From NCBI GenBank assembly GCA_041641295.1, contig JBEPYO010000001.1, forward strand, positions 1,088,001-1,152,000: a stretch of 64,000 nt of DNA. The letters are read 5' to 3'. Both the position numbers and the translations under genes were made by a program. The DNA is from Nitrososphaerota archaeon. GTDB lineage: Archaea; Thermoproteota; Nitrososphaeria_A; Caldarchaeales; Calditenuaceae. Shown piece by piece: positions 4,552-52,108 of this stretch. The notes under the pieces are model-generated. The model ran no database searches and was not told the origin of the DNA. It worked only from the letters and a program-made list of their open reading frames with translations. Each line of letters starts with the position of its first letter. Position 1 is the stretch's first letter.

Positions 4552-4692
4552 GGACGCGTGGAAGGGGACGAGGGATGCCAAATAATTGCCGAAGATATCG
4601 GATGAGCCTTGATGTTTCTGAATGACTGTTCCCTGTGCCACGCTAGCTCCGAGAACTCAGAAGAACTCAGGTTCTCAGGAGATTACTGACGA

Positions 4693-4916
4693 CCGGGGCG
4701 GCAACACCTGATCCGAGGGCGGGTCCGAGGGGGCGTGGAGGCTTCCCGGCTGTTGCCGGCCTCCCCAATATGTCTATGGGGAGGAGAAAATGGTCTCCCG
4801 TCCCTCATCGGACCCGCGCCCCGGGGTTGCAGGGGGGCCTGGTCCCGGGCCTAAGCACGACCCCCCTTCGGGGTCTCGACGCAGGGACCCGCGGACAATC
4901 CGCGGAGCCAGCCGCC
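4693..4916 (+). ncRNA. Candidate GC-rich multi-stem structured RNA upstream of the IS110-like ORF
   Basis: GCGGGTCCGA(4719-28)/TCGGACCCGC(4808-17); hairpins CCGGC/GCCGG, CCTCCCCA/TGGGGAGG, GACCCC/GGGGTC, CCGCGGA/TCCGCGG; G-U pairs fall on the + strand. Confidence 0.5.
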
Positions 4917-4963
4917 AAATCAAAGTGGAAGAACTCGAGGATTAATGGGAGGATGACGAATAG

Positions 4964-5857: not shown

Positions 5858-5997
5858 ACAGCAGGGAAAAACCCTAGACGGCCGGTGCCCGAAAAGATAT
5901 AGGTGGTAGAGAAACTCTCTACCGCCCCCTCAATTTATAGCCCGGTCGTCCTTTCCTAGGGGTTCCTAGGTGCTGTCTGGCAGGCCTGCCCCCAGCC
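5838..5997 (+). ncRNA. ~160-nt rod-like hairpin RNA overlapping the 3' end of IS110-like copy 1
   Basis: Nested stems GGCTGGGGGCA/TGCCCCCAGCC, AGACAGCA/TGCTGTCT, CCCTAG/CTAGGG, GACGGCCGG/CCGGTCGTC, GGTGGTAGAG/CTCTACCGCC; homologous to 48358-48516. Confidence 0.7.
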
Positions 5998-6670
5998 AAA
6001 CCCTCCCCTATCTCTCCCTCCCAATTCTTGCCTCACACCAGTATAGGATTCCTTCTCGAGCTTAGCTACTAAGAGAGTATAATCCTACCCACGAGACCCG
6101 GTTAGCTACCCTGCGAGTTTTAGTCTCGCTGAGAAGCCACTGAATTACGCCTAGTCTGTGTCACCTATCAACAACTATTACAGGCTTACCATCACAAATG
6201 TCTAGTACCCTTCTTAAGAATGTTAGGGCAGTGACGATGGGTCTACTCCTGGATGCGTATATGTGTATATAGCTGTTATCTCTCTAAATCCACACCTATT
6301 GCAGACCAACATGTATACTATGCTGCCGTAGACCTTCTCTACAGTCTCGTCTACGACACCCATCCTCCTAGGCCTCCTCTTCGGCCCTGAATAAAATCCT
6401 CAGTCTATGAACCATCTCTAATACTCTCTCTAGCAGCATAATTTCAGAAAATATCTCTCACATATATCCCCAAGGCTAAGATCAGCTATAACAGAACAAC
6501 AGCATACAACCTCTCAGAAGGACTATACCTATTGGTTCAGAACAGTTTGAGAAAGACTATACTACATGGTTCGTTCAAAGATATGCATAACAAAGTGAGA
6601 CAACTACAAGGCCTTGAACTGTCTCTAAAAATCTTAAATAAAAGTTGACAGCACCCTGCAAACCATCCGT

Positions 6671-6707
6671 TAAATATAAATTGAGCGGGCTTCCTTTTTC
6701 AGCCCGC
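6671..6707 (+). promoter_or_regulatory. TATA box and inverted repeat of the aromatic amino acid operon
   Basis: TAAATATAAA at 6671-6680; GCGGGCT-N9-AGCCCGC at 6685-6707 spans the expected transcription start. Confidence 0.6.
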
Positions 6708-6797
6708 ATGAGTAGGGGGAGGGGCGTAGGTCGTAGCTACTTAACACCTCTATGGGGTACTACGACCTATGCCTATTTCTTTGGACCGATTGACTAG
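6708..6797 (+). CDS. Putative aromatic-rich leader peptide MSRGRGVGRSYLTPLWGTTTYAYFFGPID (29 aa)
   Basis: ATG ~28 nt after the TATA box (near-leaderless); 3 Tyr, 1 Trp and 2 Phe codons; double TAG stop; lies inside a structured leader just before the shikimate operon. Confidence 0.65.
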   Translation: MSRGRGVGRSYLTPLWGTTTYAYFFGPID

Positions 6798-6851
6798 TAG
6801 GTCCTCTTCTCCCCCCTCCCCCCTGCTCTGCGGATGTGTGGTGTATGTACC

Positions 6852-7904
6852 ATGTCTAGGTTAGGTGTAGCTATACTCGGAGCGACGGGGATGGTTGGCC
6901 AAATATACGTGCAGATGCTGAGCAAGCATCCATGGTTTGAGATTAGGGCTGTGACGGGGAACTCGACGGTGGGCAAGACGCTCAGAGAGGCTTACCGAGG
7001 CAGGGGCCATGTGCCGGAGAAGTATGCCGACATGGAGGTTCTGCCCTCAGACCCATCTAAGATAGACGCCGACCTGGTCTTCAGCTGTCTTCCAACAAAA
7101 TCTGCCAGAGAGGTTGAGCCCAAGTTCGCAGCTGCCGGCTTCCCGGTTGTAAGCGACTCGTCAGCCCACAGATACCTGCCCGACGTTCCTCTAATCATAC
7201 CGGAGGTAAACCCAGAGCATCTTGACTTGATAGATGCCCAGAAGAGGAGGCGCGGCTGGGACGGCTTCATAGTAACAACTCCCAACTGCACTACCGTCGG
7301 ATTCGCGACCCCCCTCAAACCACTAGCCGATGACTTCGGCCTCAGATACGTCAACGTTGTGACGATGCAGGCGGTCTCGGGGGCGGGCTACAACGGCGTG
7401 CCGTCGATGGCTATCTTGGGAAACATTATCCCCTATATTGAGGGGGAGGAGGCGAAAGTCTCTGAAGAGCCTAGAAAGATTCTGGGCAGGCTGGTTGACG
7501 GTGAGGTTCAGCCCATGGATATTCCAATTGATGCGACCTGTATGAGGGTGCCGACGATTGTAGGCCACCTCGAATCAGTCCAGGTTGAGCTTGGCAGGGA
7601 CGCCTCCGTGGAGGAGGTTGTAGACTCGCTGGCGGGATTTATCGGGCTGCCTCAGAAGCTGGAGCTACCGACCGCGCCTAGACGCCCGATAAATGTTCTC
7701 ACTGATGAGGAGAGGCCTCAGCCTCGGCTGGACGCGGATGCAGGCGAGGTACCGGGGATGGTTATCTCTGTCGGCAGGGTTAGAAAGGGTAGAAAGCCGG
7801 GCACGGTGATGTTCGTCACGTTGAGCCATAACCTTATAAGAGGCGCTGCCGGCGGCGCTATATTGACCGCTGAGCTGCTCTACGCTTTGAGGAGGTTGGA
7901 TTAG
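6852..7904 (+). CDS. asd: Aspartate-semialdehyde dehydrogenase
   Basis: ILGATGMVGQ, PNCTT active-site Cys, QAVSGAG, RVP..GH, HNLIRGAAG; ATG 6852 chosen because it follows a GTGGTG RBS. Confidence 0.95.
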   Translation: MSRLGVAILGATGMVGQIYVQMLSKHPWFEIRAVTGNSTVGKTLREAYRGRGHVPEKYADMEVLPSDPSKIDADLVFSCLPTKSAREVEPKFAAAGFPVVSDSSAHRYLPDVPLIIPEVNPEHLDLIDAQKRRRGWDGFIVTTPNCTTVGFATPLKPLADDFGLRYVNVVTMQAVSGAGYNGVPSMAILGNIIPYIEGEEAKVSEEPRKILGRLVDGEVQPMDIPIDATCMRVPTIVGHLESVQVELGRDASVEEVVDSLAGFIGLPQKLELPTAPRRPINVLTDEERPQPRLDADAGEVPGMVISVGRVRKGRKPGTVMFVTLSHNLIRGAAGGAILTAELLYALRRLD

Positions 7905-8704
7905 TGATGGTGTCGGGTAAGAAGGTCAGGCTTTCGAGACTGACAGAGCGTGGGAGGATGCTCTGCATTCCCATGGACCACGGAATAACCGTCGGGCCAA
8001 TGAAAGGGCTTGACACAATATACAAGACGATCCGCGAGGTGGAGAAGGGTGGGGCTACAGCGTTCCTTGTCCAGAAGGGGATAGTGAAGCACATGCCTGA
8101 GCCTCCGCAGATCGGGTTCATAATCCATGTATCGGGAAGCACCTCGCTGGGCCCAGACCCCAACTGGAAGGTTCGCGTCGGAGGAGTGAAGACCGCACTC
8201 CTGCTGGGTGCCGATGGCCTCTCAGTTCACATAAACATAGGCAGCAAGGCTGAGCCCGAGATGCTGAAGAAGCTCGGAGAGGTGGCGGACGAGTGCGAGT
8301 CTTGGGGTGTCCCGCTGATAGCTATGATGTATCCGAGGGGTGAGGGAATCAAGGATCCGAACGACCCGAACGTGCTGATGCATGTCGCGAGGGTTGGTGC
8401 TGAGCTGGGGGCTGACATAGTTAAGGTGCCCTACAGCGGGAGCGTGGATACGTTTAGACGGGTTGTTGAGGCCTGTCCTGCGCCGGTCGTCATGGCAGGA
8501 GGTCCAAAGATGGATGACGACTTGGCGGTCTTGAGGATGGCTCGCGAGGCTATGGATGCTGGCGCGATGGGGGTAACCATAGGTAGGAACGTCTTCATGC
8601 ATGAGAGACCGGCGGCAATCGTCAGGGCGCTACGCGCAATAGTAATCGAGGACAGGAGCGTAGAGGATGCCCAGAGCCTGCTTGGGCGTGAGCTTAGGGC
8701 TTGA
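7904..8704 (+). CDS. aroA': 2-amino-3,7-dideoxy-D-threo-hept-6-ulosonate synthase (class I aldolase, AroA')
   Basis: [29 protein letters not shown] motifs; adjacent to DHQ synthase II. Confidence 0.85.
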
Positions 8705-9699
8705 ATTCAAGCGGGTCTAAAGAGATAGTCATAGAAGTCTCTGACGAAGAGGAGGCTGAGGAAGCTGTAGCGGCCGGTGCCCCCATACTACTCTATACGG
8801 AGGGCGAGACGCCGGCAAACCTGAAAGTCCGTGCAAAGATATACTCTCTCGGCAGGGAGATTGTTCCAGTCAAGGTATCCAAGCCCAGCGACATTGATGA
8901 GATTGTTAGGCTGGCTCGGACGGGGGTTGGGTCAATACTGGTGGAGACCGCTGACATTAAGATTATTCCGTTGGAGAACATATTGGCCAGTCTTCAAGGG
9001 TCTGGGACGAAGGTTTTCGTGAGGGTTGGGAGTGTCGAAGAGGCTGAAGCCATGCTAGGAGTGCTTGAGAGAGGCGTTGACGGGGTTGTCTACCGGCCAT
9101 CCAGCCCGAGCGAGATTGGTCTTCTCCTCGATATTGTGAGGCAGGTGAGGAGGGTCGAGCTGAGGGCTGCTAGGGTGTCCGACGTCTTCGACGTTGGTAT
9201 GGGTGAGAGGGCGTGCGTTGACACGACATCGATGCTCAGGTATGGTGAGGGGATGCTTGTTGGCAGTATGGCTAGGATGCTCTTCCTCATACACAACGAG
9301 TCAGTGGGCTCAAAGTTCACTCCACCTAGACCCTTCAGGGTAAACGCGGGCGCGGTCCACCTCTACACTCTAGGCCCGACCGGTAAGACACTATACCTCT
9401 CTGAGCTCAAGTCGGGTATGCGGATCCTAATGGTGTCCAAGGATGGGTCTGCGAGAGTTGTCACTGTGGGTAGGGTGAAGATTGAGAGGAGGCCGATGGT
9501 GCAGGTCAACGCTGAGATAGACGGGGTCTTCGGCTCAGTAACGCTTCAGAAGGCTGAGACGATAAGGCTTCTGACAGCTAAGGGCGAGATAGTAGATGTC
9601 ACCTCACTCGCTCGGGGAGAGGAGATATTGGTCTGGCTCTCAAGTAAGGCTGCACGACACATGGGAATGGAGGTAGACGAGTTCATAGATGAGGTCTAG
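8701..9699 (+). CDS. aroB': 3-dehydroquinate synthase II (AroB')
   Basis: IIPLENI, GERACVDT, GEGMLVG, RPFRVNAGAVH, GRVKIERRP, LQKAETIRL, ARHMG. Confidence 0.92.
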   Translation: MNSSGSKEIVIEVSDEEEAEEAVAAGAPILLYTEGETPANLKVRAKIYSLGREIVPVKVSKPSDIDEIVRLARTGVGSILVETADIKIIPLENILASLQGSGTKVFVRVGSVEEAEAMLGVLERGVDGVVYRPSSPSEIGLLLDIVRQVRRVELRAARVSDVFDVGMGERACVDTTSMLRYGEGMLVGSMARMLFLIHNESVGSKFTPPRPFRVNAGAVHLYTLGPTGKTLYLSELKSGMRILMVSKDGSARVVTVGRVKIERRPMVQVNAEIDGVFGSVTLQKAETIRLLTAKGEIVDVTSLARGEEILVWLSSKAARHMGMEVDEFIDEV

Positions 9700-10402
9700 C
9701 CTAGCCGAGAAGGTCTGCGTCTCGATAATGCCCAGGAATATCGGAGAATTCGGACAGCTGTGCGAGAGGGCCTTAGAGCTTGGAGCTAGGCTGGTCGAGC
9801 TACGCCTAGACGGTCTACAGGAGGGTGAGATCGGTGGGGCGGCAAGACTGGTCCAAGACATGAGCATTAAAAAGATCATCACACTTCGGCCAAGCTGGGA
9901 GGGTGGACTCTACGCTGGGGACGAGCAGAAGAGATTGGAGCTTTTGAGACGGGTATCAGTGGATGCAGAGTATGTTGATCTTGAGCGCAGGACTGTAGAT
10001 GCTAATCCTAGGCTTGTGGAGGAGCTGCGAAATGTGGGGGTCAAGGTAATCTCCTCCAAGCACTATTTCGGCGAGGCTCCGTCTAGCCTTGAGCTGCGGA
10101 GGGTTGTTGCGGAGGGGTTGGGGATGGCGGATATAGTCAAGGTGGTTAATAATCCGGGGAAAGTGTCGGAGGCTATGGATATTCTCGCGCTCTACTCTGA
10201 GGCCTCTTTCAGGGGTAGGGTTATCTCGTTCAGTATGGGTGAGAGATGGTGCCTCACGCGGGTGCTCAGCGTCCTGCTTGGGGCGCCCTTCACATACGCA
10301 TCTCTACCCGGCCAGCCCGTGGCTCCAGGCCAGCCCAGCTTCCCCGATACTCTAGAGGCCTTGGAGGTGTTCCTGAAGAGTTGGCCCTCTTGGCAGTTAT
10401 AG
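9689..10402 (+). CDS. aroD: Type I 3-dehydroquinate dehydratase
   Basis: VELRLD, TLRPSWEGG, SKHYF, SMG, APGQ. Confidence 0.9.
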   Translation: MRSSLAEKVCVSIMPRNIGEFGQLCERALELGARLVELRLDGLQEGEIGGAARLVQDMSIKKIITLRPSWEGGLYAGDEQKRLELLRRVSVDAEYVDLERRTVDANPRLVEELRNVGVKVISSKHYFGEAPSSLELRRVVAEGLGMADIVKVVNNPGKVSEAMDILALYSEASFRGRVISFSMGERWCLTRVLSVLLGAPFTYASLPGQPVAPGQPSFPDTLEALEVFLKSWPSWQL

Positions 10403-42700: not shown

Positions 42701-44032
42701 AAGACACTCATAGTACCCATCGACACCTCAGTCGAGGTCAGGAAGCCGAGTGACGAGATATTCAAGTATGACGGTAAGCACAGAGACGTAACAACAGCAG
42801 TCTTTGACCTCAAACTACTCCTCAACTACGAGGGCAAGACACTGCCAGACAGCATTAAGAACAGCATCGAGGTGTGGGTATTCAGGAAGACAGGCGCAGT
42901 AACTGAGCTAGCCCTCAGGTTCAGAGGCGGACCCACAATAGACACGGTCACTGTCAACCGGCTGCCCAGAGGAGTCTACGAGGCGCGTGTTGTCTTCGTA
43001 CCGACAGGCGCAACAATCTTCACTAGGACCTTCGACATCAGCGTAGTCAACGTCGGCACAGTGCAGGCCGAGGCCTCGCTACCATTCACAGACCTGTCAT
43101 TCGAGGTGACAGACCTTCGCGGAAGACCGCTACCGATCAGTGAAGGCGGAGTCACGGTAGAGCCAACACAGCTCTACAGCAGAGTATCAGTAGCAGGCAA
43201 CGTTGTGACGATAACAGCACTATACACAGGCGCCCCAGTCACTGTGACGGTCAAGTACTCGAGCCCAGTCTACGGTACCACTGCAGACACTAGGATAACT
43301 GACTCAGCCGAGGGCTTCAGAACCAGGCTACTGGGCGGCAGGACACTACAGCTACCAGTGGACGACGTGACAGTAACGGTGGTTGACAGGCAGGGAAGAC
43401 CGATGGGTGGCGCGGTGGTCAAGCTAGGCCAGGCGCCAGCCAAGTCCACCGGCGGTGACGGCAAGGCAGTCTTCGAGAGCGTCCCGCTAGAGTCAGCAGG
43501 CAGAGGAATAACATACTCACTATCAGTCACGGTCGGCGGCGTAGAGGTCACACCGGCAGACGCTAGGAGCGTAGAGCTCTCAACCGCTAGGACATCGATA
43601 ACGGTGATCGGTGAGCTGTTCTCGCTGCCGGTCAGGGTGATCGGGCAGCTAGGACAGGGACTAGAAGGCGCTAACGTCAGGGTGGTCAAGGGCGCTGTAA
43701 CAGTTGCTTCGTCCTCGACAGACCAAGGCGGGTTCGCCCAGTTCGACAGACTAGTGCTAGACACCTACACGGTCGTCGCCAACTACAAGGGCTACAGCCA
43801 GGAGGTAACCGTTTCGAGCGCTGACCTCCAGGCTGGCAGGGTGGTCGAGATAACGCTGCCAATCTACACCGAGCTACTAGGCATACCGATGCCGCTCTCG
43901 ACACTCCTAGCTCTGATAATCGGTCTGATACTTCTGGTCGTGGTCCTCGCGATAATCGTCAGCGAGTACAGATGGTGGAGAGGCAGAAGGCTGGGCGTCT
44001 ACCCACCAGCACCACCGAAGGCACCGAAATAA
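36761..44032 (+). CDS. Giant (~2,420 aa) cell-surface protein with repeated carboxypeptidase-regulatory/Cna-like beta domains and a C-terminal membrane anchor
   Basis: Signal peptide ending VIQAQ; repeated D..GRPL.GA.V...TD..G.A.F units; many NxT/S sequons; C-terminal TM followed by RWWRGRR; ATG 36761 preferred. Confidence 0.8.
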   Translation: MPDNSGHSKLGALNAAKVALLVAMLIVPAVLVAVPVIQAQTTYSAWLKLVTTSWNGQPCIAGGTPACVGATTGFADRYNLTANWYWVEVYHEKRGAPFNDVVFAGKFYPNGTGFVLISWPVDWPNVTVVVKAKSYDGTEIGAGTLYDGIIVYMLVINPTDVYLNAKTGSGWGGFYSRIIDMTGTITSYPFYRPTAAGPVNFVRIWPKSFAGNHSHPTAADAWVANSSVIFKPFHVHTWYSVLDNLSYAQVKIYDINHTAADSSASLLRAFVTKGDGSGNSLYDPRTTGEMFPVYGTRWRDNELVPIPLQAINLNAKRPYSQNLPRGGVTTYAHLNATVRVWWESVLVNTTFYVGPDLAQPNQLVTVNSGPPPVVYPGNDFQSAQLPTMQSLSIYYNHTTPVNPAARLYDYLNATVFYWRCGARDDDLLVNGTDTSIGWVGSALFDAQCIVNLRDKNSNVYHTLHERGSTGQRWEVSSTQLTDYYALSDDPHDWSGYLSAFRGYLRAPNATMWTGLYTKFAGVTIDGTSAAGLIYVSKYYSGTADLTQDPSLVAVNDYLKTRSIADDPGPYRGIRLEVQYAGGYKNLYGGLKQTVGVYTLQNIYLIALKDTTPAPGWVDPFATAISGNYPEILTPSPLRQIRLGTSENGGPIAGIVDSNTVENVPNPPGSDRTFERDGKLLVVANASDIVFAVYDNQGSLLTPPQTDIWLLRENGVPVQLAWYRFYDTPSAGIARYVRESEFVPFLQFINVSTSLFSGPPPSHIAVAYQVPENLMYGVIVKFEGVSVYQNEGEIPKLIKTVYKQLTVSVFKLKVVFVDCQDRPLTNTPAWVIDPILGTEVRFNTGPDGARDFIVPADSITFTRLYWKGVDVPLLEAILPNGTKIQAEGGKVTIPATADIYAPIKIKVLVDDFVFKTWDFQGTTAIPRLNITIWWTGYNISDPTKSPWTFLETMDPRGYGVSDDTLAQRLGDPRIELPFDADRWNTSVRVAQFFAYVIFYDNRTNEYTFYQMPPAIYNIIVTTVVPIPGFSASASPGVGFWPGETQDRAYESVIVWKPGAESVTPEEVHEGAKTRVVLREFNKDLRYTSCGVQNVDLKTWALHWFLEMIDSDLPIGDVRFDIVNDNFLSMTLDLGNSTKWDKLTLEYKTIIYGTNKRGPQDYSYIWWNGSYRLEDVRLVTNMSFTVDKFYNATAPNKVWPTLNFTLQPNAELHAQQALYSDWLDLQEDFGYKIIIYDKETLRAPLPVTLIKPRAIDKGGAPLENALIELWILDVNKASKIDITDPDGDDTITVWDTTYTEGQCRVSPHTVSISWVWETKRVADRDTPQHFEEVTWDRLNLTIDGDKMFLQVPPYPAKLYLRDIGVGDDDNFVVTAKEIYWLVDNEGCPIDNNDEDEGGADTPMTYDDGLLKYARWKTQADGTIKSFTIPGYEGLLLVPTSGWLNETFSAEGATGVDLEEEFHYQFNVVWKSAVVYSDNFVLDKGPVIEFGASEVYDVRFMFTLSNSTNPADAVRNLNLWIYYPNVTTWHEAKLWSKPIPPPQDYAACEESYFTCDLRVTLISSADADGVVEFSKIPGPRFMNTTWKYVFSANHSAITWLTDLVATQFVLNNETFGDGPLKKVTKSGIDVPIMLNAAHQLQFLVLGWRDEQGIPTAYPLEGFNVKYEIRNLEAKITAASGTAVSDTNGLATVASDPRDPTKVLWAGLTVRYRVEPPSWLINVNDARWSQLLGARGVEVVSYTGYTPDPRPSVGAYFPDEVPTHWAITTISTWFSEDGYCFGLCTAYFPEEGRTRSKPYIINVDYTIVTVRALDFNGRPLRGAFVEIVERASGRVAGWSYTFGSTWTRQPIDLQQLYDYHRVSLLPARIVGGDGYTEFIPVAVGPWNYDANNDDKIDVRGEWKEGARGDDPRTSDREGTALAYIVRVYWAATDPSPDNANGDLRAIWPFIDPQKPFTTTEAGQSVRKYHVKVYDSDFDETDEAAKTLIVPIDTSVEVRKPSDEIFKYDGKHRDVTTAVFDLKLLLNYEGKTLPDSIKNSIEVWVFRKTGAVTELALRFRGGPTIDTVTVNRLPRGVYEARVVFVPTGATIFTRTFDISVVNVGTVQAEASLPFTDLSFEVTDLRGRPLPISEGGVTVEPTQLYSRVSVAGNVVTITALYTGAPVTVTVKYSSPVYGTTADTRITDSAEGFRTRLLGGRTLQLPVDDVTVTVVDRQGRPMGGAVVKLGQAPAKSTGGDGKAVFESVPLESAGRGITYSLSVTVGGVEVTPADARSVELSTARTSITVIGELFSLPVRVIGQLGQGLEGANVRVVKGAVTVASSSTDQGGFAQFDRLVLDTYTVVANYKGYSQEVTVSSADLQAGRVVEITLPIYTELLGIPMPLSTLLALIIGLILLVVVLAIIVSEYRWWRGRRLGVYPPAPPKAPK

Positions 44033-44230
44033 ACCAGTAAAAACCCTCCAAATTTATTTCCCCATTTTTTATATCATCAATCACCTATTCTCAGGCTAAT
44101 CTATATCAGGCTCACCGTCATTAGGTCCTCTGGCAGCTGTCAAAACCCGGCCTATGTATTACAACTCTACATCGTGTAGCGGCTACGCGGGGAAATATTT
44201 TTCACCTAGGCTTTGGCTTCTTAAGCCAGG

Positions 44231-45328
44231 TTGAGGAGGCTATTAATCGCCACAATACTAGTTGCAGCCATCCTAGCGTCAATCCATGTCCCGGCTATTG
44301 GGCAGGAGTGTATCCGAGACCTCACACCGGGTGAGGGGGTTGAGGGCGAGCTCCGTGGGCCCGAGAACAGCGGAGAGACTCACACCTACTGTGTAAGGGT
44401 GGAGGAGGGGTCATGGGTATCGGTCTCGGTCGAGATGTATCATAAGGAGCTGCTCACCTCTAGGATAATAACGGGTATAGCCCAGGAGGGTGGTGGCTTC
44501 CTACTTTATAGGGACGAGGTCCTTCCAACGGGCGGATCCAAGGCCTACAGCTACAACTGGTATGTATCGGGCTCCGACACAAATCTTAGGGTTATCCTCA
44601 CCAGCGTTGCAAACCGCTTGGCGCCGTCAGTAGTGGGGTATAGAGTCTCAGTAAGCGTAAGTAAAGCAGTGGACGCGGGCAGAGTCGTCGTTAAGTCAGG
44701 TCCAGGCATGGAAGAGTCCTTCACTCTCAACATCGGAGACGCGCCGGGCGACGTCTACTCGGCTGAAGCACTGCCTGAGCTCCCAAAGATAAGTCAGGGG
44801 CAGTCTCTCGGTTTTGCCGGACACCTCTCGGCCAACATCGTCAAGGAGACTGAGAAGGGGGCTGAGCTCTATGGTGGAAGGGACACGTCAGACATCTACG
44901 CCCTCCCGGTCGAGGCTCCGGCGAACAGCCGCATAAACATAACCGTAACACCGCCCAAGGGCGCCACACTGCTGGTCGTCCTGAGGTCTGAGGACGGCGC
45001 AGCCCTCGTCTCAGCAGCATCGAGAAAGGCCGGTGAGCCAGCCACAATCTCGACCAGCTTCAGCAAAGCAGTCAAGGATGGGAGACTGCTGATCGACGTA
45101 CAGCTCTTGAGATCCGATGTGCCAGACGTATCATATACTGTGGATGTTGTTTTGAGCGAGCCGCCCAAGCCCGAGACGCAGGTTGAGTTTAAGCCCCCGT
45201 TCCCAGAGTCTCAGGCGAGGACGATAGTGATAGGCTTCTCTGCCACCGTTATCGCCGTGACTATCGCCTCGGTCGTTATCGGCTGGTTCAGGAGGAGGCC
45301 GGAGAGGCAGCCAGCCTACTACTGGTAG
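44231..45328 (+). CDS. Secreted, C-terminally anchored hypothetical protein (PPC-like beta domains)
   Basis: Signal peptide, D..DIYAL motif, C-terminal TM plus basic tail. Confidence 0.6.
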   Translation: MRRLLIATILVAAILASIHVPAIGQECIRDLTPGEGVEGELRGPENSGETHTYCVRVEEGSWVSVSVEMYHKELLTSRIITGIAQEGGGFLLYRDEVLPTGGSKAYSYNWYVSGSDTNLRVILTSVANRLAPSVVGYRVSVSVSKAVDAGRVVVKSGPGMEESFTLNIGDAPGDVYSAEALPELPKISQGQSLGFAGHLSANIVKETEKGAELYGGRDTSDIYALPVEAPANSRINITVTPPKGATLLVVLRSEDGAALVSAASRKAGEPATISTSFSKAVKDGRLLIDVQLLRSDVPDVSYTVDVVLSEPPKPETQVEFKPPFPESQARTIVIGFSATVIAVTIASVVIGWFRRRPERQPAYYW

Positions 45329-45332
45329 AGGG

Positions 45333-46706
45333 ATGCAGCCTATACAGACCCTCAGGGAGCTCTCACTAGCCCTAGGTACGGGCAGGCTCACCTGCGAGGA
45401 AATAGTCACGCACATGCTCAAGCGCATCGGCGAGCTTAACCCAACACTAAGGGCGTACATAACAGTCTCAGATGAGGCGGCCCTAGCCTCGGCGAGGGAG
45501 GCGGACGCAGAGCTCAAGAGGCGAGGCCCCAGGTCCACCCTACACGGAGCACCACTGGCGGTCAAGGACATGATCGCTGTCGAGGGCCTACCCATGACAG
45601 CCGGCTCCAAGGTCCTCGGCGCCAAGAAGGCGAAGCGTGACGCAGAGTGTGTCCACAGGGCCCGCACGGCCGGAATGATAGTCCTAGGCACAACAAACCT
45701 ACACGAGTTCGCCGCAGGCACCACAAATCTAAACATCCACTATGGCCACGTGAGGAATCCCTGGAACACCGAGCTTATATCCGGGGGCTCAAGCGGAGGT
45801 TCGGCCGCGGCAGTCGCAGCCGGGCTCGCAGGAATAGCACTGGGCACCGATACGGGCGGCTCTGTAAGGATACCCGCAGCCCTCTGCGGGGTCCTAGGCC
45901 TCAAGCCCAGCAGAGGTCTCATAAGCACTACGGGCGTCTTCCCCCTCTCATGGAGCCTAGACGAGGTCGGAATCCTCGCTAGAAGCGCCTGGGACGCCTC
46001 AGCAGCCCTCCTAGCCCTAGCCAAGCCCCAGGCACCAGCCCCACCCCGAATCCCCCCACCAGCACCCACCAGGCCCAGGATAGGCGTCCCCTGGAACCTC
46101 TTCGAAGAAAACCTCGAACCCCCGGTCTCCCAGGCCTTCAACTCCTTCCTCCAGACCCTCGAAAACCTCGACGCAGAGATCCTAGACTTGGAGCTTCCGT
46201 GGGTGCAGCCATCCCTCCGCCACTGGAGAACTATACGAGGCGCCGAGGCTGCCGCCGTCCATAAGAACTGGCTGGAGACGAGGCCCCATCTCTACTCCGA
46301 GGAGGTTAGGGAGAACCTGGCATCCGGCCTAGGAGTCACGGCCGTCGAATATATAACCGCCCTCCGGGAGAGGGACAAGATATCAGCCAAGGCCGCAGCC
46401 CTCTTCACAAGCCTAGACGCTATAGCCACCCCCACCCTACCCATAGCCGCACCCAAGATCTCGCTGGTCGAGGGGATGTCCCTCCAGGAGCGGGCAGAGC
46501 TCAGGGCAAAAATGATCTCCCTAACATTCCTGGCAAACCTAGCCGGTCTCCCAGCCATCTCAATACCCGTCAAGCCAGCCGGAGGGGGGCCTGTCCACGG
46601 CGCCCAGCTCATCGGACCGCCTGGGAGCGACTATACGCTCCTCGGGATAGCCTGGGAGTACGAGTTCACCGTTAACGGGTTCAGCTTCCCAGCCCCATTA
46701 TATTGA
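45333..46706 (+). CDS. Amidase signature family enzyme (GatA-like)
   Basis: HGAPLAVKD, GGSSGGSAAAVAAG, LGTDTGGSVRIPA. Confidence 0.92.
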   Translation: MQPIQTLRELSLALGTGRLTCEEIVTHMLKRIGELNPTLRAYITVSDEAALASAREADAELKRRGPRSTLHGAPLAVKDMIAVEGLPMTAGSKVLGAKKAKRDAECVHRARTAGMIVLGTTNLHEFAAGTTNLNIHYGHVRNPWNTELISGGSSGGSAAAVAAGLAGIALGTDTGGSVRIPAALCGVLGLKPSRGLISTTGVFPLSWSLDEVGILARSAWDASAALLALAKPQAPAPPRIPPPAPTRPRIGVPWNLFEENLEPPVSQAFNSFLQTLENLDAEILDLELPWVQPSLRHWRTIRGAEAAAVHKNWLETRPHLYSEEVRENLASGLGVTAVEYITALRERDKISAKAAALFTSLDAIATPTLPIAAPKISLVEGMSLQERAELRAKMISLTFLANLAGLPAISIPVKPAGGGPVHGAQLIGPPGSDYTLLGIAWEYEFTVNGFSFPAPLY

Positions 46707-46787
46707 TACCAGGGGCTCCTCCGCGGAGACGATACGTGCTTATAGTTTAATTATGAGTATGGTTGATTGGTTTTCAACGGTGAGGGG

Positions 46788-47213
46788 ATGGAGAGGAGTT
46801 ATCAGGTGGCTGAGGACTGCCTCTACACGAAGGATCACAGCTGGGTGAGGCTTGAGGGGAAGAAATACGCCGTGATAGGAATAACCGACTACGCCCAGAG
46901 GAAGCTGAGGGAGATAATCTACGTCGAGCTCCCCAACATTAACACAAGGGTCCAGAAGAGGCAGCCCCTAGCCACGCTGGAATCCGTAAAGGCCAGCACA
47001 AGCCTATACTCGCCCATTTCAGGCCGCGTAGTGGAAGTAAACACGGAGCTCCTAGACAATCCGGAGGTCATAAACGAGTCGCCCTACAGGGAGGGATGGA
47101 TCGTAAAGCTCGAGTTCCAGAACAAGGAAGAGCTGGAGAGCCTCCTAACACCCGACGAGTATCAGAGATACGTAGAGGAGCTCGAGGAGATTGGTGAGGA
47201 GGCGGAGGAATGA
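46788..47213 (+). CDS. gcvH: Glycine cleavage system H protein (lipoyl carrier)
   Basis: YTKDHSW, GITDYAQ, ESVKA lipoyl Lys, SPISG, INESPY.EGW. Confidence 0.9.
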   Translation: MERSYQVAEDCLYTKDHSWVRLEGKKYAVIGITDYAQRKLREIIYVELPNINTRVQKRQPLATLESVKASTSLYSPISGRVVEVNTELLDNPEVINESPYREGWIVKLEFQNKEELESLLTPDEYQRYVEELEEIGEEAEE

Positions 47214-47223
47214 GGGTAAGAGC

Positions 47224-47290
47224 CAAATGATGTTTCCTACCTCGGCTCGGCCGCAATATCACTACCTCAAACTATCGGCCGGTCTGATCT
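47224..47290 (+). ncRNA. Possible box C/D sRNA
   Basis: ATGATGT (47227-33) and CTGA (47284-87) with ~60-nt spacing; C'/D' boxes not clear. Confidence 0.35.
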
Positions 47291-47562
47291 TAACCCACTT
47301 AGATTCTTCCACCGGGAGTATTACAGCCTGAGGTTTTCAACCACACCCCCTCATATCCCTCCCTCCACAATCAGTCTCAGAAACTCCAGCACAGCTTCTT
47401 CTATTTCAATCCCCAAATAAATCAGGCTCGCTTGGTCATGCCACACGACTTTTTGCGAGGGAATTTGACCAATGCAGGCCAATCTATACCGTGCAGGTTC
47501 TTTGATACTTTCGGCGAGGTCTCTTAAAAATTATAAACCGCTCGGCAGTGGGTTCGCTAGTC

Positions 47563-48378
47563 ATGCAAGAGGCTTTATATGCGTCCGGGATAGCAGTCAG
47601 AAGATATTTTGTGGACGTCCACATAGACACAAAGAGGAGACACCACGTAGTATACGACGGCCAAGGAATTAGGAGGCTCGGTAGTTTAACGGATATTCCG
47701 GCTGAGAAAGGAGATGAGGTCTACGTAGACACTCTATTTGGAGCAATCTACGACGAAGTTCAAGAACTTTTGAAGAGAGGGGTAAGGGTGTTCGTCTTAA
47801 AGAGGACAGATATCCTTCCTCGGCTGAGAAGAGCAAACAACATTGAAAAGAGTCATGAAAATGATGCGAAGATTTTGTCAATGATAGACAGCACCTATTA
47901 CCATGAGATATGCGAAGATGAAATAAAACTAAGGGAACTAATAGTTGAATATAACAAATGTTTGAAGCTTCTGAAAATGATGCAGCAATTAAATGGAAAG
48001 TCTAAAGCCTTCAAGGAAGCTCAACTTATTATACGGAGAGAGAAAGCACGGCTCGCCAGAAGAATAAATAAGGTAGCTGAGAAAGCAATATCAAGCTATA
48101 ATAAAGTTTGCGACGCCCTCAAACTCTCCTACGGTAGTTTTTATGGGAGGGCAGCTCTCGCAGATATTCTGTTACACATTGACTTCGGTAGAGGTCTTCG
48201 TAAGATCTTAAGCTATTTGGGTCGTCATCAGCACAATCGAGGCCACTATAATGGGAGGCTGAAAAAAGTGTTGGAAAGCTTATCGATAAGCGTCTACAAA
48301 AAACAGAAGATTAGAGCACGAGAACAGGTCGAGATTCTAAAGACTATCAGGAGGATCTTGGCTGGCGGTCCGGCTTGA
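47563..48378 (+). CDS. IS110/Nop-like RuvC-fold protein, copy 2
   Basis: YFVDVH...VYVDT...GVRVFVL...KSHENDAKIL; aligns by eye to 4964-5857; TTATAAA at 47531 suggests a leaderless ATG 47563. Confidence 0.65.
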   Translation: MQEALYASGIAVRRYFVDVHIDTKRRHHVVYDGQGIRRLGSLTDIPAEKGDEVYVDTLFGAIYDEVQELLKRGVRVFVLKRTDILPRLRRANNIEKSHENDAKILSMIDSTYYHEICEDEIKLRELIVEYNKCLKLLKMMQQLNGKSKAFKEAQLIIRREKARLARRINKVAEKAISSYNKVCDALKLSYGSFYGRAALADILLHIDFGRGLRKILSYLGRHQHNRGHYNGRLKKVLESLSISVYKKQKIRAREQVEILKTIRRILAGGPA

Positions 48379-48516
48379 TGGAGGGAAAAGAGCCGTATGA
48401 ATGCCGGCACCGAGACCCTTATCGCTGAGAGCCATAGGCTCAAGGCGCCTACGGGTCTATTGCTAAGGCTTCATATGGCTCTCCCAGATATTGTCAGGCT
48501 GGTAACCGCCAGTCAA
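48358..48516 (+). ncRNA. ~160-nt rod-like hairpin RNA overlapping the 3' end of IS110-like copy 2
   Basis: TTGGCTGGCGGT/ACCGCCAGTCAA, CCGGCTTGATG/TGTCAGGCTGG, GAGCCGTATGAA/TTCATATGGCTC, AGACCC/GGGTCT, GAGCC/GGCTC; homologous to 5838-5997. Confidence 0.7.
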
Positions 48517-48670
48517 CTCTCGAGATCCCTCAATTATTTCTAATTAATTCTATCTGGCAGGGTTAAAGTTAGTGTAAAGGTTTATACGTATCAGATCAGA
48601 GTACGTAGTGGTGACCGGACTGCGACCTTCCGCGACCAGTTATGGGGGAAATAGGGGTGAGAATAGCTAG

Positions 48671-49006
48671 TTGAAAGTGCGAGTATACAGGGTCTCCTCC
48701 TACACCGACCCCGAGACCGGGAGGCCCGGCAAGATAATAGAGCTGGTGGAGGTCAGGAGGATCCAGCAGGCCAGCGCCCTAGGCACCGGTCCGGAGGAAT
48801 ATATAATGGCTCAGAGGCTACTCCAGAGCCTCATGGCGCAGCTCCAGAGCATGGGCTTAGTGCCACCTCAAAGGGACATAATCCTCCCAAAGCTAACCCT
48901 GATTCTGACCGAGGAGGAGTACGACCTGCTAGGTGTCAAGCTCGAGGTGAATGAGGAGTTCGACCTAGAGTTCAGGGACGGGAAGATAACGTTCAAGCCA
49001 GTGTAA
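48671..49006 (+). CDS. Arcadin-1 homologue
   Basis: DP.TG....IELVE...PKLTLILTEEEY...G..LEV.....LEF.DG.ITFKP resembles crenarchaeal arcadin-1 (recalled, not searched). Confidence 0.7.
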   Translation: MKVRVYRVSSYTDPETGRPGKIIELVEVRRIQQASALGTGPEEYIMAQRLLQSLMAQLQSMGLVPPQRDIILPKLTLILTEEEYDLLGVKLEVNEEFDLEFRDGKITFKPV

Positions 49007-49022
49007 CCTACCGCGGGTGCCT

Positions 49023-49172
49023 ATGCCTAGGATATTTTTCAAGTGTATAATCTGCCGCGAGGAGAGGGAGGCGGTGATCGTCTTCGAGAAGGGCGAGTAT
49101 CTACAGGTCACGTGTGAGAGGGGGCATACACAGTTCATAAACAAGAAGGAGGCGCGCATCACCGGTGGGTGA
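49023..49172 (+). CDS. Small zinc-ribbon protein (49 aa)
   Basis: MPRIFFKCIICREEREAVIVFEKGEYLQVTCERGHTQFINKKEARITGG; CxxC...CxxGH; missed by the ORF track. Confidence 0.65.
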   Translation: MPRIFFKCIICREEREAVIVFEKGEYLQVTCERGHTQFINKKEARITGG

Positions 49173-50886
49173 AGATGTATAGGCCTGGTCCATCCTTCAC
49201 ACAGTAGCCGAAGCGCTCAAACTGGACGACAGTTCCCAAGGCTATCTTGGTCTCGTATGGCTCGACGAGTCCTTCAACGGTCTTCAGGCTCTCGGTGTTC
49301 AGCTCCTCTCCGCGGAAGAGCTGGTCCGGAATAAGCACCCTCAGCTTTGACGCGCCCTCGGGAACCCACTGGATCACTTGAAGCCCAGGCTCGGGGCCTC
49401 CCTCCTCGGCCTCGCAGATAAGGGCATCACCGTCCAAGCCTAGGACCTTGAGGTTTACAAAGTATTTGAGCCTGAACCTGTCGCCGGGTTTGAGGTTCTC
49501 GGCGTCGCTGCCCGGAATGTACACGGTCTCGCCAACCTCGATGGTCCTGCTCCCCATATCCGTGGACGGGTGGAGCGGTGCTGTAACGAGTCTCCTATGA
49601 GCCTCCCTGATGATTACCTTACGCGGGCTCGGTGTGAAGAAGAGCCTAGGTGTTTTCGGGTCCAGTATCTTCCTGTTGATTGCGTAGAGTAGCTCCCATG
49701 AGTAGAGCTTCCTGCTGGGAGTGAGGGCGACGTAGGACTTGACGAACTCCTTTAATGCCTCTGGCGATATGCCCCTCCTCCTGGCCGAAGTTACTGTGCC
49801 TAGCCTCGGGTCATCCCAGCCCTCCACGACCCCGCGCTCAATCAGCTCCCTAATCTTCCTCCTAGAGAGTGGTGTGCCCTCGAACTCGAACCTAGAGTAC
49901 TCTACGTAGACAGGGTTCTTCAGCCCCAATCTCTCGCGTATGGCGTCTTGGAGGGCGTCCCGGAACATGAACTCTGACGTCCTTAAGACGTGTGTGACTC
50001 CGCAGACAGCGTCTTGGATTGCGACGGCGAAGTCGTAGGTGGGCCAGACGATGTATCTATCACCCTTAAGGGGGTGTGGGTGGTCGACTATTCTGAATAG
50101 GACTGGATCTCTGAGGGCGGTGTTCTGGCTCTGAGGGTCTCCCGCGAACCTCACAACTGCCTCGCCCTCTGACATTGCGCCTGAGAGCATCTCATCCCAC
50201 TTATCTAGGTGCCATGAAGTGTCCATTGAGCGGTGGCTACAGGCCACTCCCTTAGACCTCTGCTTCGCCATCTCCTCCTTGCTGCAGCTGCAGACGTAGA
50301 GGTGTCCACCCTCAAACAGCCGCCTAGCGTACTCGTAGTAGAGCTCCATGTCGTCGCTGTTGTTTTTCTCCGCATCCCACTTGACGCCACACCACCTATA
50401 CCCTTCCCTGTAGGAGTCGTAGTATTCGGCCCTCACCTTCCTAGGGTTGGTGTCCTCAAACCTGAGCCAGAGGAATCCGCGATATCTCTCCCTGTAGAGG
50501 TAGTTTATGATTCCGTGGAATGCGTGTCCCAGGTGCATGTAGCCGCTCGGCTCAGGCGGTAGGCGTAGAACCACTGCACCCTCAATAGCGGCTGGAAGGT
50601 CAGGTAGCTGTCTCTCCACTTCCCTCCTAGGCTTCTCTGCTAGGAGGTGTGGAGCTATCTCGGACAGCGAGACCTCGATGGTCTGTAAATCCAGCGAGTT
50701 TACCCATGCAACAGCCTCCTTAACGGCCTCGACTACTTGGCTCACGACGCTCTTGGCGGCCGGTATTTCTGCAATAACCTTAGACACGACAGGTCCGACT
50801 TGTGCCTTCCCATCGTGATCGAAGGCGTTTTTAAGAGCCCATTTTAGAGCTGCCCGCTTGACCTCTTCGAGGCTAACCGTGCCCAT
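49159..50886 (-). CDS. gltX: Glutamyl-tRNA synthetase (archaeal type)
   Basis: PPEPSGYMHLGH (HIGH), RFEDTNP, WPTYDF, GVTHVLR, GWDDPRL, QFERFGY. Confidence 0.95.
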   Translation of the reverse strand: MGTVSLEEVKRAALKWALKNAFDHDGKAQVGPVVSKVIAEIPAAKSVVSQVVEAVKEAVAWVNSLDLQTIEVSLSEIAPHLLAEKPRREVERQLPDLPAAIEGAVVLRLPPEPSGYMHLGHAFHGIINYLYRERYRGFLWLRFEDTNPRKVRAEYYDSYREGYRWCGVKWDAEKNNSDDMELYYEYARRLFEGGHLYVCSCSKEEMAKQRSKGVACSHRSMDTSWHLDKWDEMLSGAMSEGEAVVRFAGDPQSQNTALRDPVLFRIVDHPHPLKGDRYIVWPTYDFAVAIQDAVCGVTHVLRTSEFMFRDALQDAIRERLGLKNPVYVEYSRFEFEGTPLSRRKIRELIERGVVEGWDDPRLGTVTSARRRGISPEALKEFVKSYVALTPSRKLYSWELLYAINRKILDPKTPRLFFTPSPRKVIIREAHRRLVTAPLHPSTDMGSRTIEVGETVYIPGSDAENLKPGDRFRLKYFVNLKVLGLDGDALICEAEEGGPEPGLQVIQWVPEGASKLRVLIPDQLFRGEELNTESLKTVEGLVEPYETKIALGTVVQFERFGYCVKDGPGLYIFTHR

Positions 50887-52108
50887 GAGCCATCGCGGAC
50901 TGTATCTTCACCACGTCCCTATCCTTCAGCCTATAGTCTGCGGGGAGTCTGAGACCTGTCCTCGCGTCTATGGCGTAGAGGAGGCCCTTGGCCAGGTCCT
51001 TGTGAATCCTCTCGGCTAGGTCCCTGACAGTCGAGTTGGGTGGCATGAGTATAGCATCTGGCAGAACGTTCCCCCGCGTATCGGCATACTTCGTGATGTC
51101 CGCGACTGGGTAAACCACATTCATCCCCAAGAGCTTGAATACCGCGGTGTTGATGGCGAACTGTACGCCAGTCCTCATATACCTCCCCAGTATCCGCTCG
51201 TTAATCATCTCCAAGGCCCAGAGCTGCTGCTGTGTCAGCATAGACCTGTTTACTATCTGGAACTTCTCCTCGCCGGGGAGGTACTTGATCAACCCCTTCT
51301 GCTCAGCCCGCCTCAGTATGAGCTCCGCCTCCGCGCTGCACGGCACGACTATCTTGTCAGGAAACCTCTCCTGAAGCTCTCTGTAAAACTTCTCCGACCC
51401 CTCAATATCCATCTTGTTGGCAATGATTATTGTGGGCTTGGACACCTCCCTAAGCGTCTCGCTGAACTTCCTATCATCCATCATGCTCCAGTTGTCAAAC
51501 TCCTTTTCCTTGAGCCCGCTCCTCGCAAGGGCCTCCTCGACGTGCTGCTGTGTAATCTTCATACCTTTGAGCGGCTCAGAGAGGGCCTCAGCCAGGCTCT
51601 TCCCAGTCTTAATTGTCTTTGAGATCCTATCCTGATTCCGCTCTATAATCTTCATCAGCCAAATCACTATTTCCTCCTCTATGTCGAAAACATCGGCCAC
51701 CGGGTTACCTTTACCCGGCTCTGTGAGCCTTCCCTCCTCGTCAACACTTCCAGACGCGTCCACTACGTGGAGGAGGGCGTCGGCCTGTGCGGCGACTGAG
51801 AGGAACTGGTTCCCAAGCCCCTTCCCAGCCCACGCACCCTTAATCAGGCCCGGAAGGTCAACTATCTCGATAGGAATATGCCTCCACCCCTCTCTACAAT
51901 ACGAGTTCCTAGGATTACACTTCACCCCCAACTCAACATCCACGCAAGGAGTAACAGCGTAGCACGAGCCTACGTTAGGAGCCTTAGTGGTAAATGGATA
52001 TGTTGAGATCTCTGCGGAGAGCAGGGTGGCCGCGTTGAAGAACGTCGTCTTACCAGTGTTTGTCTTACCTATCAGCCCAATCTTAATCAACCGAATACCC
52101 CTTACCAC
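50873..52108 (-). CDS. ychF: YchF/Obg-family translation-associated NTPase with TGS domain
   Basis: GKTNTGKTT, YPFTT, DLPGL, GLGNQFL, NKMD, C-terminal TGS domain. Confidence 0.88.
   Translation of the reverse strand: MVRGIRLIKIGLIGKTNTGKTTFFNAATLLSAEISTYPFTTKAPNVGSCYAVTPCVDVELGVKCNPRNSYCREGWRHIPIEIVDLPGLIKGAWAGKGLGNQFLSVAAQADALLHVVDASGSVDEEGRLTEPGKGNPVADVFDIEEEIVIWLMKIIERNQDRISKTIKTGKSLAEALSEPLKGMKITQQHVEEALARSGLKEKEFDNWSMMDDRKFSETLREVSKPTIIIANKMDIEGSEKFYRELQERFPDKIVVPCSAEAELILRRAEQKGLIKYLPGEEKFQIVNRSMLTQQQLWALEMINERILGRYMRTGVQFAINTAVFKLLGMNVVYPVADITKYADTRGNVLPDAILMPPNSTVRDLAERIHKDLAKGLLYAIDARTGLRLPADYRLKDRDVVKIQSAMAHGHG

Follow-up and report, generated by a model that had tools for sequence, protein, structure and literature searches.

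A putative mobile, RNA-guided TasR-type unit between gcvH and arcadin-1 in a Caldarchaeales genome

The analyzed stretch of DNA (64,000 nt, positions 1,088,001 to 1,152,000 of contig JBEPYO010000001.1 of a Nitrososphaerota archaeon of the family Calditenuaceae; hereafter the window) contains between gcvH and arcadin-1 a small gene which is followed by a long hairpin, and a related gene with a similar hairpin is found near the beginning of the same window. What does such a pair of gene and structured RNA do, and how did it come to stand between two genes which are contiguous in relatives? With a probability of roughly 60%, the locus (copy 2; the related one is copy 1) is a single-unit, mobile and self-contained TasR-type RNA-guided system. 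The features on which this reading is based are the following.

47221 to 48682, forward strand: the whole copy 2 insertion, ~1.46 kb, from the gcvH stop to the arcadin-1 start, absent in seven out of seven congeneric genomes
47563 to 48378, forward strand: copy 2 gene, 271 amino acids (aa) from the ATG, predicted TasR/IS110-fold protein
48358 to 48516, forward strand: copy 2 RNA, a rod of ~160 nt which starts inside the last codons of the gene (fold and covariation)
4964 to 5857, forward strand: copy 1 gene, 297 aa, homologue of the copy 2 gene
5838 to 5997, forward strand: copy 1 RNA with guides GAAAAGATATA (5891-5901) and CTCAATTTATA (5929-5939) (fold and site match)

Empty sites and the guide strands

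The placement of copy 2 between gcvH and arcadin-1, as given in the original prediction, was confirmed by the Pfam matches of its neighbors, that is, GcvH (PF01597, E 5.2e-43) and Arcadin_1 (PF18653, E 7.1e-27). The synteny of the two genes in relatives, which had been put forward as the way to define the insertion, did delimit ~1.46 kb (47221-48682). In detail, the flanks of copy 2 are contiguous in G243, G166, and G130 (query 818-821 joins 2278-2284), and the gcvH stop overlaps there the arcadin-1 start (...GAATGAGGGTAAGGGTCTATAGGGTCTCC...). The flanks are just 20-35 bp apart in G114, G273, G152, and G213, and for this reason the site is considered empty in these genomes too. The right edge is ambiguous, from 48670 to 48688. 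In three DNA runs, which may be those behind the assembly, the contigs have the filled site and no alternative joint, and are uninformative on excision. The flank and the two arms are as follows.

47210 to 47220, forward strand: left flank ATGAGGGTAAG, the overlapping gcvH stop and former arcadin-1 start, kept from the target (empty-site comparison)
47221 to 47562, forward strand: left arm, non-coding and not conserved, with an A+T-rich TATA-like stretch ~25-35 nt before the ATG (from the sequence alone)
48517 to 48682, forward strand: right arm, a pyrimidine/T-rich tail, then copy-specific sequence with the end TTGAAAGTGCGAGTATAC (48671-48688), which re-encodes the arcadin-1 N-terminus

The genome (1.56 Mb, five contigs) carries five copies of the unit, namely copies 1, 2, B, C, and E, with proteins 30-54% identical to that of copy 2. 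Empty sites were also found for copies B (1,560-bp insert), C (2,018 bp), E (2,024 bp), and 1, as well as for four copies of genome G026 (sister genomes). The guides lie in the internal loop under the apical hairpin of the RNA, one on each strand, and in all nine copies compared (five here and four in G026) they match opposite strands of adjacent halves of the empty site. The half-site matches are adjacent or overlap by 2-4 nt.

48408 to 48422, forward strand: 5′ guide strand L5, CACCGAGACCCTTAT; its reverse complement in the empty site is TAAGGGTCT (9 nt) or AGGGTCTC (8 nt)
48423 to 48447, forward strand: apical hairpin between both guides; helices 9 and 10 covary
48448 to 48463, forward strand: 3′ guide strand L3, CCTACGGGTCTATTGC; its same-sense match in the empty site is GGGTCTAT (8 nt)

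The candidate target of copy 2 has the duplex sequence GGGTCTATAGGGTCTC. For copy B, CAACCTTTTA (3′ strand, same sense) overlaps TTTAACCATT (5′ strand, reverse complement) within CAACCTTTTAACCATT, and the junction is TTTAA^CC. Likewise, CCGACTAATTA (5′ strand) overlaps ATTAATCCTC (3′ strand, reverse complement) in the case of copy E, and the guide matches of copy C are ACATGTTT and AAGTCTTT. The guides of copy 1 predicted CGAAAAGATATAAATTGAGGG, of which the 3′ half is located at the exact start of synteny with relatives (6672-6685). Its empty site was located through this prediction and the other flank of the relatives, after a direct search had missed it; the intact site is GAAAAGATATAAATTGAG in G273, an uninterrupted run of 18 bases; in G243 and G166, a single base is mismatched.

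Whole RNAs were compared with 51-nt empty sites, and the longest same-sense and the longest reverse-complement match were summed. The nine self pairs gave sums of 16-22 nt, against a mean of 12.8 and a maximum of 17 for the 72 non-self pairs. Self was the strict maximum in eight out of nine rows and seven out of nine columns, with matches at the same two positions of the RNA. Shuffled sites reached the observed sum 5 times per 1000 for copy 2, once for copy B, 28 times for copy C, and never for copy E. None of the five targets is present in the own genome with one mismatch or fewer.

The four copies of G026 are 87-96% identical over 1.3-1.6 kb and have guides that differ at every variable position. 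Their RNAs vary almost solely in two stretches, GAC-[5 nt]-ATTTGACG and GAC-[6 nt]-TAAGACG. The two 9-nt guides of a copy overlap by 2 nt and together give the 16-nt site of that same copy. For instance, TCACGATTT and the reverse complement of ACGGTATAA in L038 correspond to TCACGATTTATACCGT. The sites, as found in sister genomes and matched exactly by the two guides of L037, L038, and L039, are:

L037: CTAACCTAAATAAGCT
L038: TCACGATTTATACCGT
L039: CAGGGTTAAATAATGC
L040: GCGTGATTTATGGGTT; the 5′ guide is GCTTGATTT, which fits the own flank of G026 exactly and the sister site with one mismatch

When read on the strand that has the sequence of the 5′ guide, the four sites follow N5-ATTTA-N6, with an asymmetric core. 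L038 and L040 are inserted one way, L037 and L039 the other; copies 2 and B are similarly opposed in orientation to copies 1, C, and E. The flank AAGCT+CTAACC of L037 was considered as both guides on one side and rejected, since AAGCT is due to chance and the empty site puts the match of the 5′ guide in the other flank.

Spacers of TIGR-Tas are each flanked by box C (CCA) and box D (UG), and the RNA is processed to a short form. Both guides here are flanked by repeated motifs, which are GGCA/GGCG ... AATGC-like in the group of copy 2 and ATGAC ... GACG in the group of G026, at most tentative counterparts of these boxes. An orthologue of copy B, with guides kept except for one change, stands at the same chromosomal site in G243 (G243:C26; L078 1039-2816). 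The orthologue is 84-89% identical, its gene is stop-interrupted, and its RNA is 93% identical. As far as such comparisons can tell, RNA-guided choice of the site is well supported.

The RNA and the protein

The hairpins after both genes have almost the same length, as originally noted, and both are far more stable than their shuffled counterparts. The 159 nt of 48358-48516 fold at -92.4 kcal/mol (z -9.02) and the 160 nt of 5838-5997 at -94.9 kcal/mol (z -8.69), with no equal among 200 shuffles in either case. The covariation claimed for the outer stem was also recovered, since GGCTGGCGGT/ACCGCCAGTC of copy 2 and GGCTGGGGGC/GCCCCCAGCC of copy 1 differ in two compensated pairs. All five copies of the genome share the rod-shaped 3′ structure with the motifs GGGAAAA and CCTAGATGCTGTC.

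48383 to 48389, forward strand: scaffold motif GGGAAAA on the 5′ side of the lower internal loop, in all five own copies and most of the 24 aligned RNAs
48483 to 48495, forward strand: scaffold motif CCCAGATATTGTC (CCTAGATGCTGTC in other copies) on the 3′ side of the lower internal loop, conserved

A covariance model was made from copies 2 and B, and RNA alignments were produced by Infernal instead of MAFFT, which had aligned the five RNAs out of register on the 5′ side. Among 33 sources, it has 18 matches directly 3′ of the gene and on the gene strand, and a search of 31 further loci gave 18 such places as well, with one RNA match per gene copy. In the first search (33 sources), 6 out of 24 matches were weaker ones on the antisense strand, as expected for hairpins, and wherever both existed the sense score was the higher. 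Within the 24 sense RNAs, 89.6% of the 935 pair cells are standard pairs, compared with a mean of 70.9% in shuffles and 37.0-49.7% when partners are slid by 1-3 columns. Pairing is retained through changes on both sides in 38 out of 44 pairs, and none of the five measures was attained by a single one of 500 shuffles; the alignment was fitted to the model and favors the structure somewhat, though the margin is large. The view that a structure kept under sequence divergence marks a functional RNA is thus supported. Searches of Rfam gave no family at gathering scores, solely chance-level rows at E >4.

The pairs of the structure include 114 G.U cells and 23 A.C cells. A palindrome working as DNA would give equal numbers on both strands, so this excess indicates that selection acts on the RNA of the gene strand. 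The sense strand of copy 2 folds at -93.0 kcal/mol with nine G.U pairs (such pairs had been remarked on that strand from the beginning) and the antisense at -72.2 kcal/mol with none; the sense strand is the more stable one in 25 out of 34 RNAs. The proposal that the variable apex is a candidate guide region held with one refinement, namely that the guides are the internal-loop strands just below the apical hairpin (48408-48422 and 48448-48463) and not its tip. Tandem Repeats Finder detected solely two-copy repeats of period 7-13 in 44000-52000 and 1-10000, and no array of guide units.

The kinship of the two open reading frames (ORFs) is evident from 87 identities in 283 aligned columns (31%, E 8e-38). 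Every motif quoted for it was found, and every checkable detail of the original prediction was right. Neither protein has a match in Pfam or NCBIfam. PF01548 (DEDD_Tnp_IS110) and PF02371 (Transposase_20) do not match copies 1 and 2 even at E up to 10, and PF01548 has no match in the whole genome; of 14 control genomes, 7 do have one.

The AlphaFold model of the copy 2 protein (pLDDT 88.2, pTM 0.82) consists of a mixed alpha/beta, RuvC-like domain (~1-116), a coiled coil of two long helices (118-175), and a helical Nop-like C-terminal domain (179-267), without any beta strand beyond residue 116. In the Foldseek search against PDB, the top ten matches are all TIGR-TasR, ISCro4, or IS621. The best is TIGR-TasR 9mty_B (E 5.2e-7, TM 0.56), ISCro4 and IS621 follow at E 4e-6 to 8e-5, and the next kind of protein is Cas1, from E 6e-3 and with TM <0.2. 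Similarly, a profile of 40 family sequences reaches TaTasR at E 4.6e-9 (profile positions 78-239) and IS621 at E 0.011; the family sequence KsdenDakvL is aligned with KNDENDSKVI in TaTasR and KTDTVDARML in IS621. The alignment with IS621 ends just short of the region of its C-terminal catalytic serine. A smaller profile of seven sequences gave nothing relevant among PDB sequences.

Of the residues in the 40-member alignment, K96 and D101 never vary, and D18, D56, and R89 hardly do. The K-x-D-x-x-D motif is KSDEND in most of the family; its aspartate at +2 is replaced by H in copy 2 (KSHEND) and by S in copy 1 (KTSRND). No serine or tyrosine beyond residue 116 is invariant or near-invariant among the 40 members. 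IS110 recombinases are described as depending on a C-terminal serine located on a beta sheet, a feature that Nop5 lacks (available part of 10.1101/2024.06.21.599552). Because it has neither this serine nor the sheet, the copy 2 protein is TasR-like (RuvC, coiled coil, Nop) and not an IS110 recombinase.

The family is small, with 189 out of 1.84 billion cluster representatives scoring E 0.001 or better. Among 401 sampled genomes of the phylum, 32 have a match, and 30 of them (this genome included) belong to one order; the two matches outside it are weak (E 6.6e-4 and 8.6e-4). Many genomes have six or more family matches, and many matches are stop-interrupted or located at contig ends, which is typical of repeated mobile DNA. 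A word-index protein search returned four proteins including the query, the sole named one being a hypothetical protein of Candidatus Caldarchaeum.

The conserved core of gene and RNA is ~1.05 kb. Every insert is larger, and the arms of the own copies have no nucleotide similarity with each other. The left arm of copy E contains a ~245-bp repeat (L076 reverse 2363-2607; G000:C1:358202-358446), which recurs in the genome and in G130, G243, G166, G114, and G273 at 70-86%. Upstream of copy 1 (~4100-4550), outside the conserved unit, a G+C-rich repeat without ORFs is also present at G000:C1:886262-886499 (81%) and in G243 and G130. The G026 copies share a left arm with a divergently oriented ORF of 134 aa (L039 2536-2940, forward; also L038, L040, and part of L016), of which a second partial copy is found nearby; the idea that it is PCNA-like was dropped, as it has no Pfam or NCBIfam match. 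The right arm of L038 contains a ~415-nt repeat (reverse 2865-3280), which is found directly after the RNA of another copy in G066:C2 and G010:C2 and may be another module of the element.

Insertion and the alternative explanations

The fold, the selected structure of the RNA, the insertion, and the match between guides and site are established by comparison, and the following course of events is proposed from them. The gene would give a small TasR-type protein, and its 3′ end with the downstream sequence the rod RNA of ~160 nt, in which each strand of the internal loop would hold a guide of ~9-11 nt. One guide would pair with one DNA strand in the left half of a ~16-nt site and the other with the opposite strand in the right half, the two overlapping by 2-4 nt in the A/T-rich center. 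The complex of protein and RNA would select the site, and the DNA that carries it would end up inside. The insertion would destroy the site, and therefore no cleavable copy would be left in the host genome. The RuvC domain would cut the two strands at staggered positions, like TasR, and repair or joining by the host would then leave the element in either orientation and with variable short duplications.

The duplicated target bases of the four G026 copies, that is, ATTTAT, TATG, TAA, and TTAA, correspond to positions 6-11, 9-12, 8-10, and 8-11 of the 16-nt site, respectively. TasR is reported to cut each strand after the fifth guide position, leaving 8-nt 3′ overhangs (PMC12045711, in the sections available). 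When this rule is applied to the G026 sites, it gives positions 5-12, and all four duplications fall inside. The own copies show a duplication of AA in copy E, none in copy B, and AAATATAAA (9 nt) in copy 1, which begins at position 5 of the longer target of that copy. Since the duplications are variable, both orientations occur, the ends are unrelated, and the serine is missing, a guided staggered break with imprecise joining fits better than a precise recombinase, and it is this course that we infer.

Two further models of the joints were rejected. A donor-binding role of the loop GGGAAAA/CCTAGATGCTGTC was ruled out, since the loop is conserved while the insert ends of copies 2, B, C, and E differ. 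The joined ends would resemble the target under an att-like model, but those of copies E and B, compared by eye, bear no likeness to it.

The largest insert is the one around copy 1, which is situated 680 bp from the right end of a strain-specific island.

1 to 6671, no strand assigned: right-hand 6.7 kb of the island (G000:C1:1051751-1094671, 42,921 bp, direct repeat AAATATAAA)
6672 to 6685, forward strand: right junction of the copy 1 island, AAATATAAATTGAG, where synteny starts and the 3′ guide matches

The sequence of the relatives to the left of the copy 1 target maps to G000:C1:1050252-1051750, and the two halves of the site are thus separated by 42,921 bp. Apart from ~1 kb of fragments, none of the seven congeners has the first 19 kb of the island. 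Seven of its ten largest ORFs have hits (polysaccharide flippase, family-2 glycosyltransferase [GT2], DUF1616, FtsX-like permease, MoxR ATPase with DUF58, and metallophosphoesterase), and no integrase is among these ten. Among the cargo are thus genes for polysaccharides of the cell surface (flippase, GT2, DUF1616). The idea that a tyrosine integrase moved the island was rejected, as PF00589 has no match in the genome at E 0.01 or better, and 14 out of 14 controls respond. The absence of PF00589 would be unexpected if a XerA-type recombinase were present; the genome is 93.8% complete.

Several observations weigh against the proposed course. One carboxylate of the KxDxxD motif, present in most family members, TaTasR, and IS621, is replaced in all five copies here, and the nuclease of copies of this type could be weak or dead; the recently multiplied G026 copies are also without it. 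The junctions of copy 2 misfit the simple picture, in that the left flank ends with GGGTAAG and the right one has a diverged 18-nt start of arcadin-1. In detail, TTGAAAGTGCGAGTATAC is a diverged duplicate of the original ATGAGGGTAAGGGTCTAT, with 8 of 18 bases different and the peptide kept (MKVRVY vs MRVRVY), so the start of arcadin-1 is now inside the insertion and the guide match is gone there. The duplications range from 0 (copy B) and 2 (copy E) to 9 nt (copy 1), the insert ends are not conserved, and the inserts measure from 1.46 to 42.9 kb. Copy C has a weak match of 8+8 nt, which 28 of 1000 shuffles attained too. Lastly, comparison alone does not settle whether the guide chooses the site or the site is copied into the guide.

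The latter possibility leads to an explanation in which the guides record the site: the insertion takes place by another route, the flank is copied into the RNA gene, and the complex then cuts empty alleles in other cells or other copies of the genome, so that the element spreads by homologous repair (homing). Between copies with an overall identity of 96%, all 11 variable guide positions are different, a pace that would be high for point mutation, and guides that always match their own site, with the target absent from the host genome, are in accordance with recording. The same pattern would nevertheless arise from guide mutants that open new sites, since a copy has to change its guides before it can insert once more, and in the 1.46-kb unit there is no visible gene or mechanism for writing two separate stretches of 5-6 nt. 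The guides kept in the orthologous copy are predicted by both readings. Recording seems rather unlikely on balance. A true insertion sequence (IS) of the IS110/IS1111 type, in which a 3′ bridge or seek RNA guides a serine-dependent recombinase and a circular donor junction is recombined with the target, appears improbable. It would account for the fold matches to IS621 and ISCro4 (E 4e-6 to 8e-5) and the profile match to IS621 (E 0.011), for the site-specific insertion that matches the loop strands of the RNA, and for the same 2 nt (AA) on both sides of copy E, which are core-like. The RNA of the IS1111 group also lies 3′ of the gene, the same placement as here. On the contrary, PF01548 and PF02371 are silent at E up to 10, and the 40 members have no invariant C-terminal serine or tyrosine and the model no strand past residue 116. 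There is a single variable dual-guide loop, the other internal loop being conserved between copies whose ends differ; the insert ends are not conserved, and the joined ends are unlike the targets. Near-identical copies in both orientations at the asymmetric N5-ATTTA-N6, with duplications of variable length, do not fit such a recombinase either.

The missing carboxylate in all five copies would also suit a nuclease-dead DNA binder of the TasR type, for example a repressor, riding on DNA that is moved by something else; catalytically dead TasR proteins are reported to act as repressors in the part available of 10.64898/2026.09.09.750476. A repressor needs an intact site, though, and each site here is split by the element and found nowhere else in the genome. 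The 1.46-kb insert has no other visible transposase or integrase, and PF00589 and PF01548 find nothing genome-wide; a passive binder is quite improbable. The hairpin could finally work as DNA, that is, as a cruciform, an end structure, or a palindrome for protein binding, given that a long inverted repeat yields the same pairing statistics on both strands and that the covariance model scores the antisense as well (6 of 24 matches). This is countered by the 114 G.U against 23 A.C cells, the sense fold of copy 2 (-93.0 against -72.2 kcal/mol, nine G.U pairs against none), the higher sense scores wherever both strands score, and the Nop-type RNA-binding domain of the protein; a role as DNA is therefore extremely improbable.

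The preferred reading is thus that the family is a single-unit, self-inserting, RNA-guided variant within the TasR/IS110 kind. Its mechanistic part is held more tentatively, with somewhat less than even confidence: a serine-less TasR-type enzyme of ~270 aa and its own 3′-encoded, dual-guide RNA of ~160 nt may suffice to aim the carrier DNA (1.5-43 kb) at a programmable ~16-nt site, through a staggered RNA-guided break and joining and not through bridge-RNA recombination. If so, the family would connect TIGR-Tas nucleases with IS110 transposons in nature and count as a mobile element of a new kind, with a compact manner of aiming DNA insertion by RNA that has not been described so far.

Comparison with known systems

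The literature search gave no description of a single-unit mobile TasR-like element; the supplementary tables of the TIGR-Tas and IS110/Nop5 papers, outside its reach, may list members. IS110 elements were reportedly shown in 2024 to be RNA-guided recombinases. The family shares with IS110/IS1111 a related fold, the mobility in many copies, the structured RNA encoded in cis, the loop strands that specify a site of ~14-16 nt, and the re-aiming by guide changes. It differs in that the Pfam IS110 domains, the catalytic serine, and the beta sheet are all absent, and in the single guide loop, where IS110/IS1111 have a target loop and a donor loop. The non-conserved ends, the two orientations, the variable duplications, and the cargo of up to 43 kb are further differences from these systems with bridge RNA or seekRNA, such as IS621 and ISCro4 (PDB 8wt6, 8wt9, 9t56; Durrant et al. 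2024, PMC11208160; PMC11187229).

The archaeal box C/D small ribonucleoprotein (Nop5) likewise has a RuvC-like fold, a coiled coil, and then a Nop-type domain, with two guides around a central loop (Vaysset et al. 2024, 10.1101/2024.06.21.599552, in the part available). Searches in the same work are reported to have revealed no other family of this architecture beyond IS110, Nop5/56/58, and Prp31. Box C/D particles have a K-turn bound by L7Ae and a fibrillarin partner, and their targets are in rRNA or tRNA, whereas here the target is DNA at the element's own site.

TnpB/IscB (OMEGA, IS200/IS605) are, like the family here, transposon-borne RuvC nucleases with an RNA from the 3′ end of their own gene, aimed at the empty site. 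Their RNA and protein architecture is unrelated, the single guide is read from the flank, and a separate transposase, TnpA, exists. In the present family, the guides lie within the RNA, and the unit does not encode a second enzyme.

The closest relative is TIGR-Tas, as TasR is the best structural and sequence match to the family. TaTasR of a Thermoproteota archaeon (PDB 9mty; Faure et al. 2025, PMC12045711, as far as that text was available) has the same plan of RuvC-like domain, coiled coil, and Nop-like domain in ~270-330 aa. Each RNA unit has two short guides between stem and hairpin, directed to different DNA strands of adjacent half-sites, and the geometry of the tandem spacers in tigRNAs, and of one loop of the IS110 bridge RNA, is the one found here. 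The units of TIGR-Tas form tandem arrays, some with a stem-loop form, whereas a single RNA unit is fused here to the 3′ end of the gene, with a long rod scaffold of ~160 nt and its own conserved loop motifs, and one active-site aspartate is missing in the present copies. The hosts are free-living hot-spring archaea. CPR (Candidate Phyla Radiation) bacteria are given as the only known non-viral hosts with arrays in the available part of the TIGRFinder preprint (10.64898/2026.09.09.750476). TIGR-Tas was described in 2025 as a group of RNA-guided DNA cutters, and the sections of PMC12045711 at hand report neither natural targets or role nor mobility; here the unit itself is mobile and its guides are aimed at its own insertion site.

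Consequently, a testable role is offered for TasR-like systems, namely selfish site-specific spread, with the carriage of large islands included, and a recurring, unannotated, and assembly-breaking repeat of Caldarchaeales genomes would be accounted for. The pair of protein and RNA is compact and thermophilic, and its targeting code, N5-core-N6 on two strands, is readable. The family would stand between TIGR-Tas and IS110, combining the TasR plan and the tandem-guide logic in a mobile unit that names its own site.

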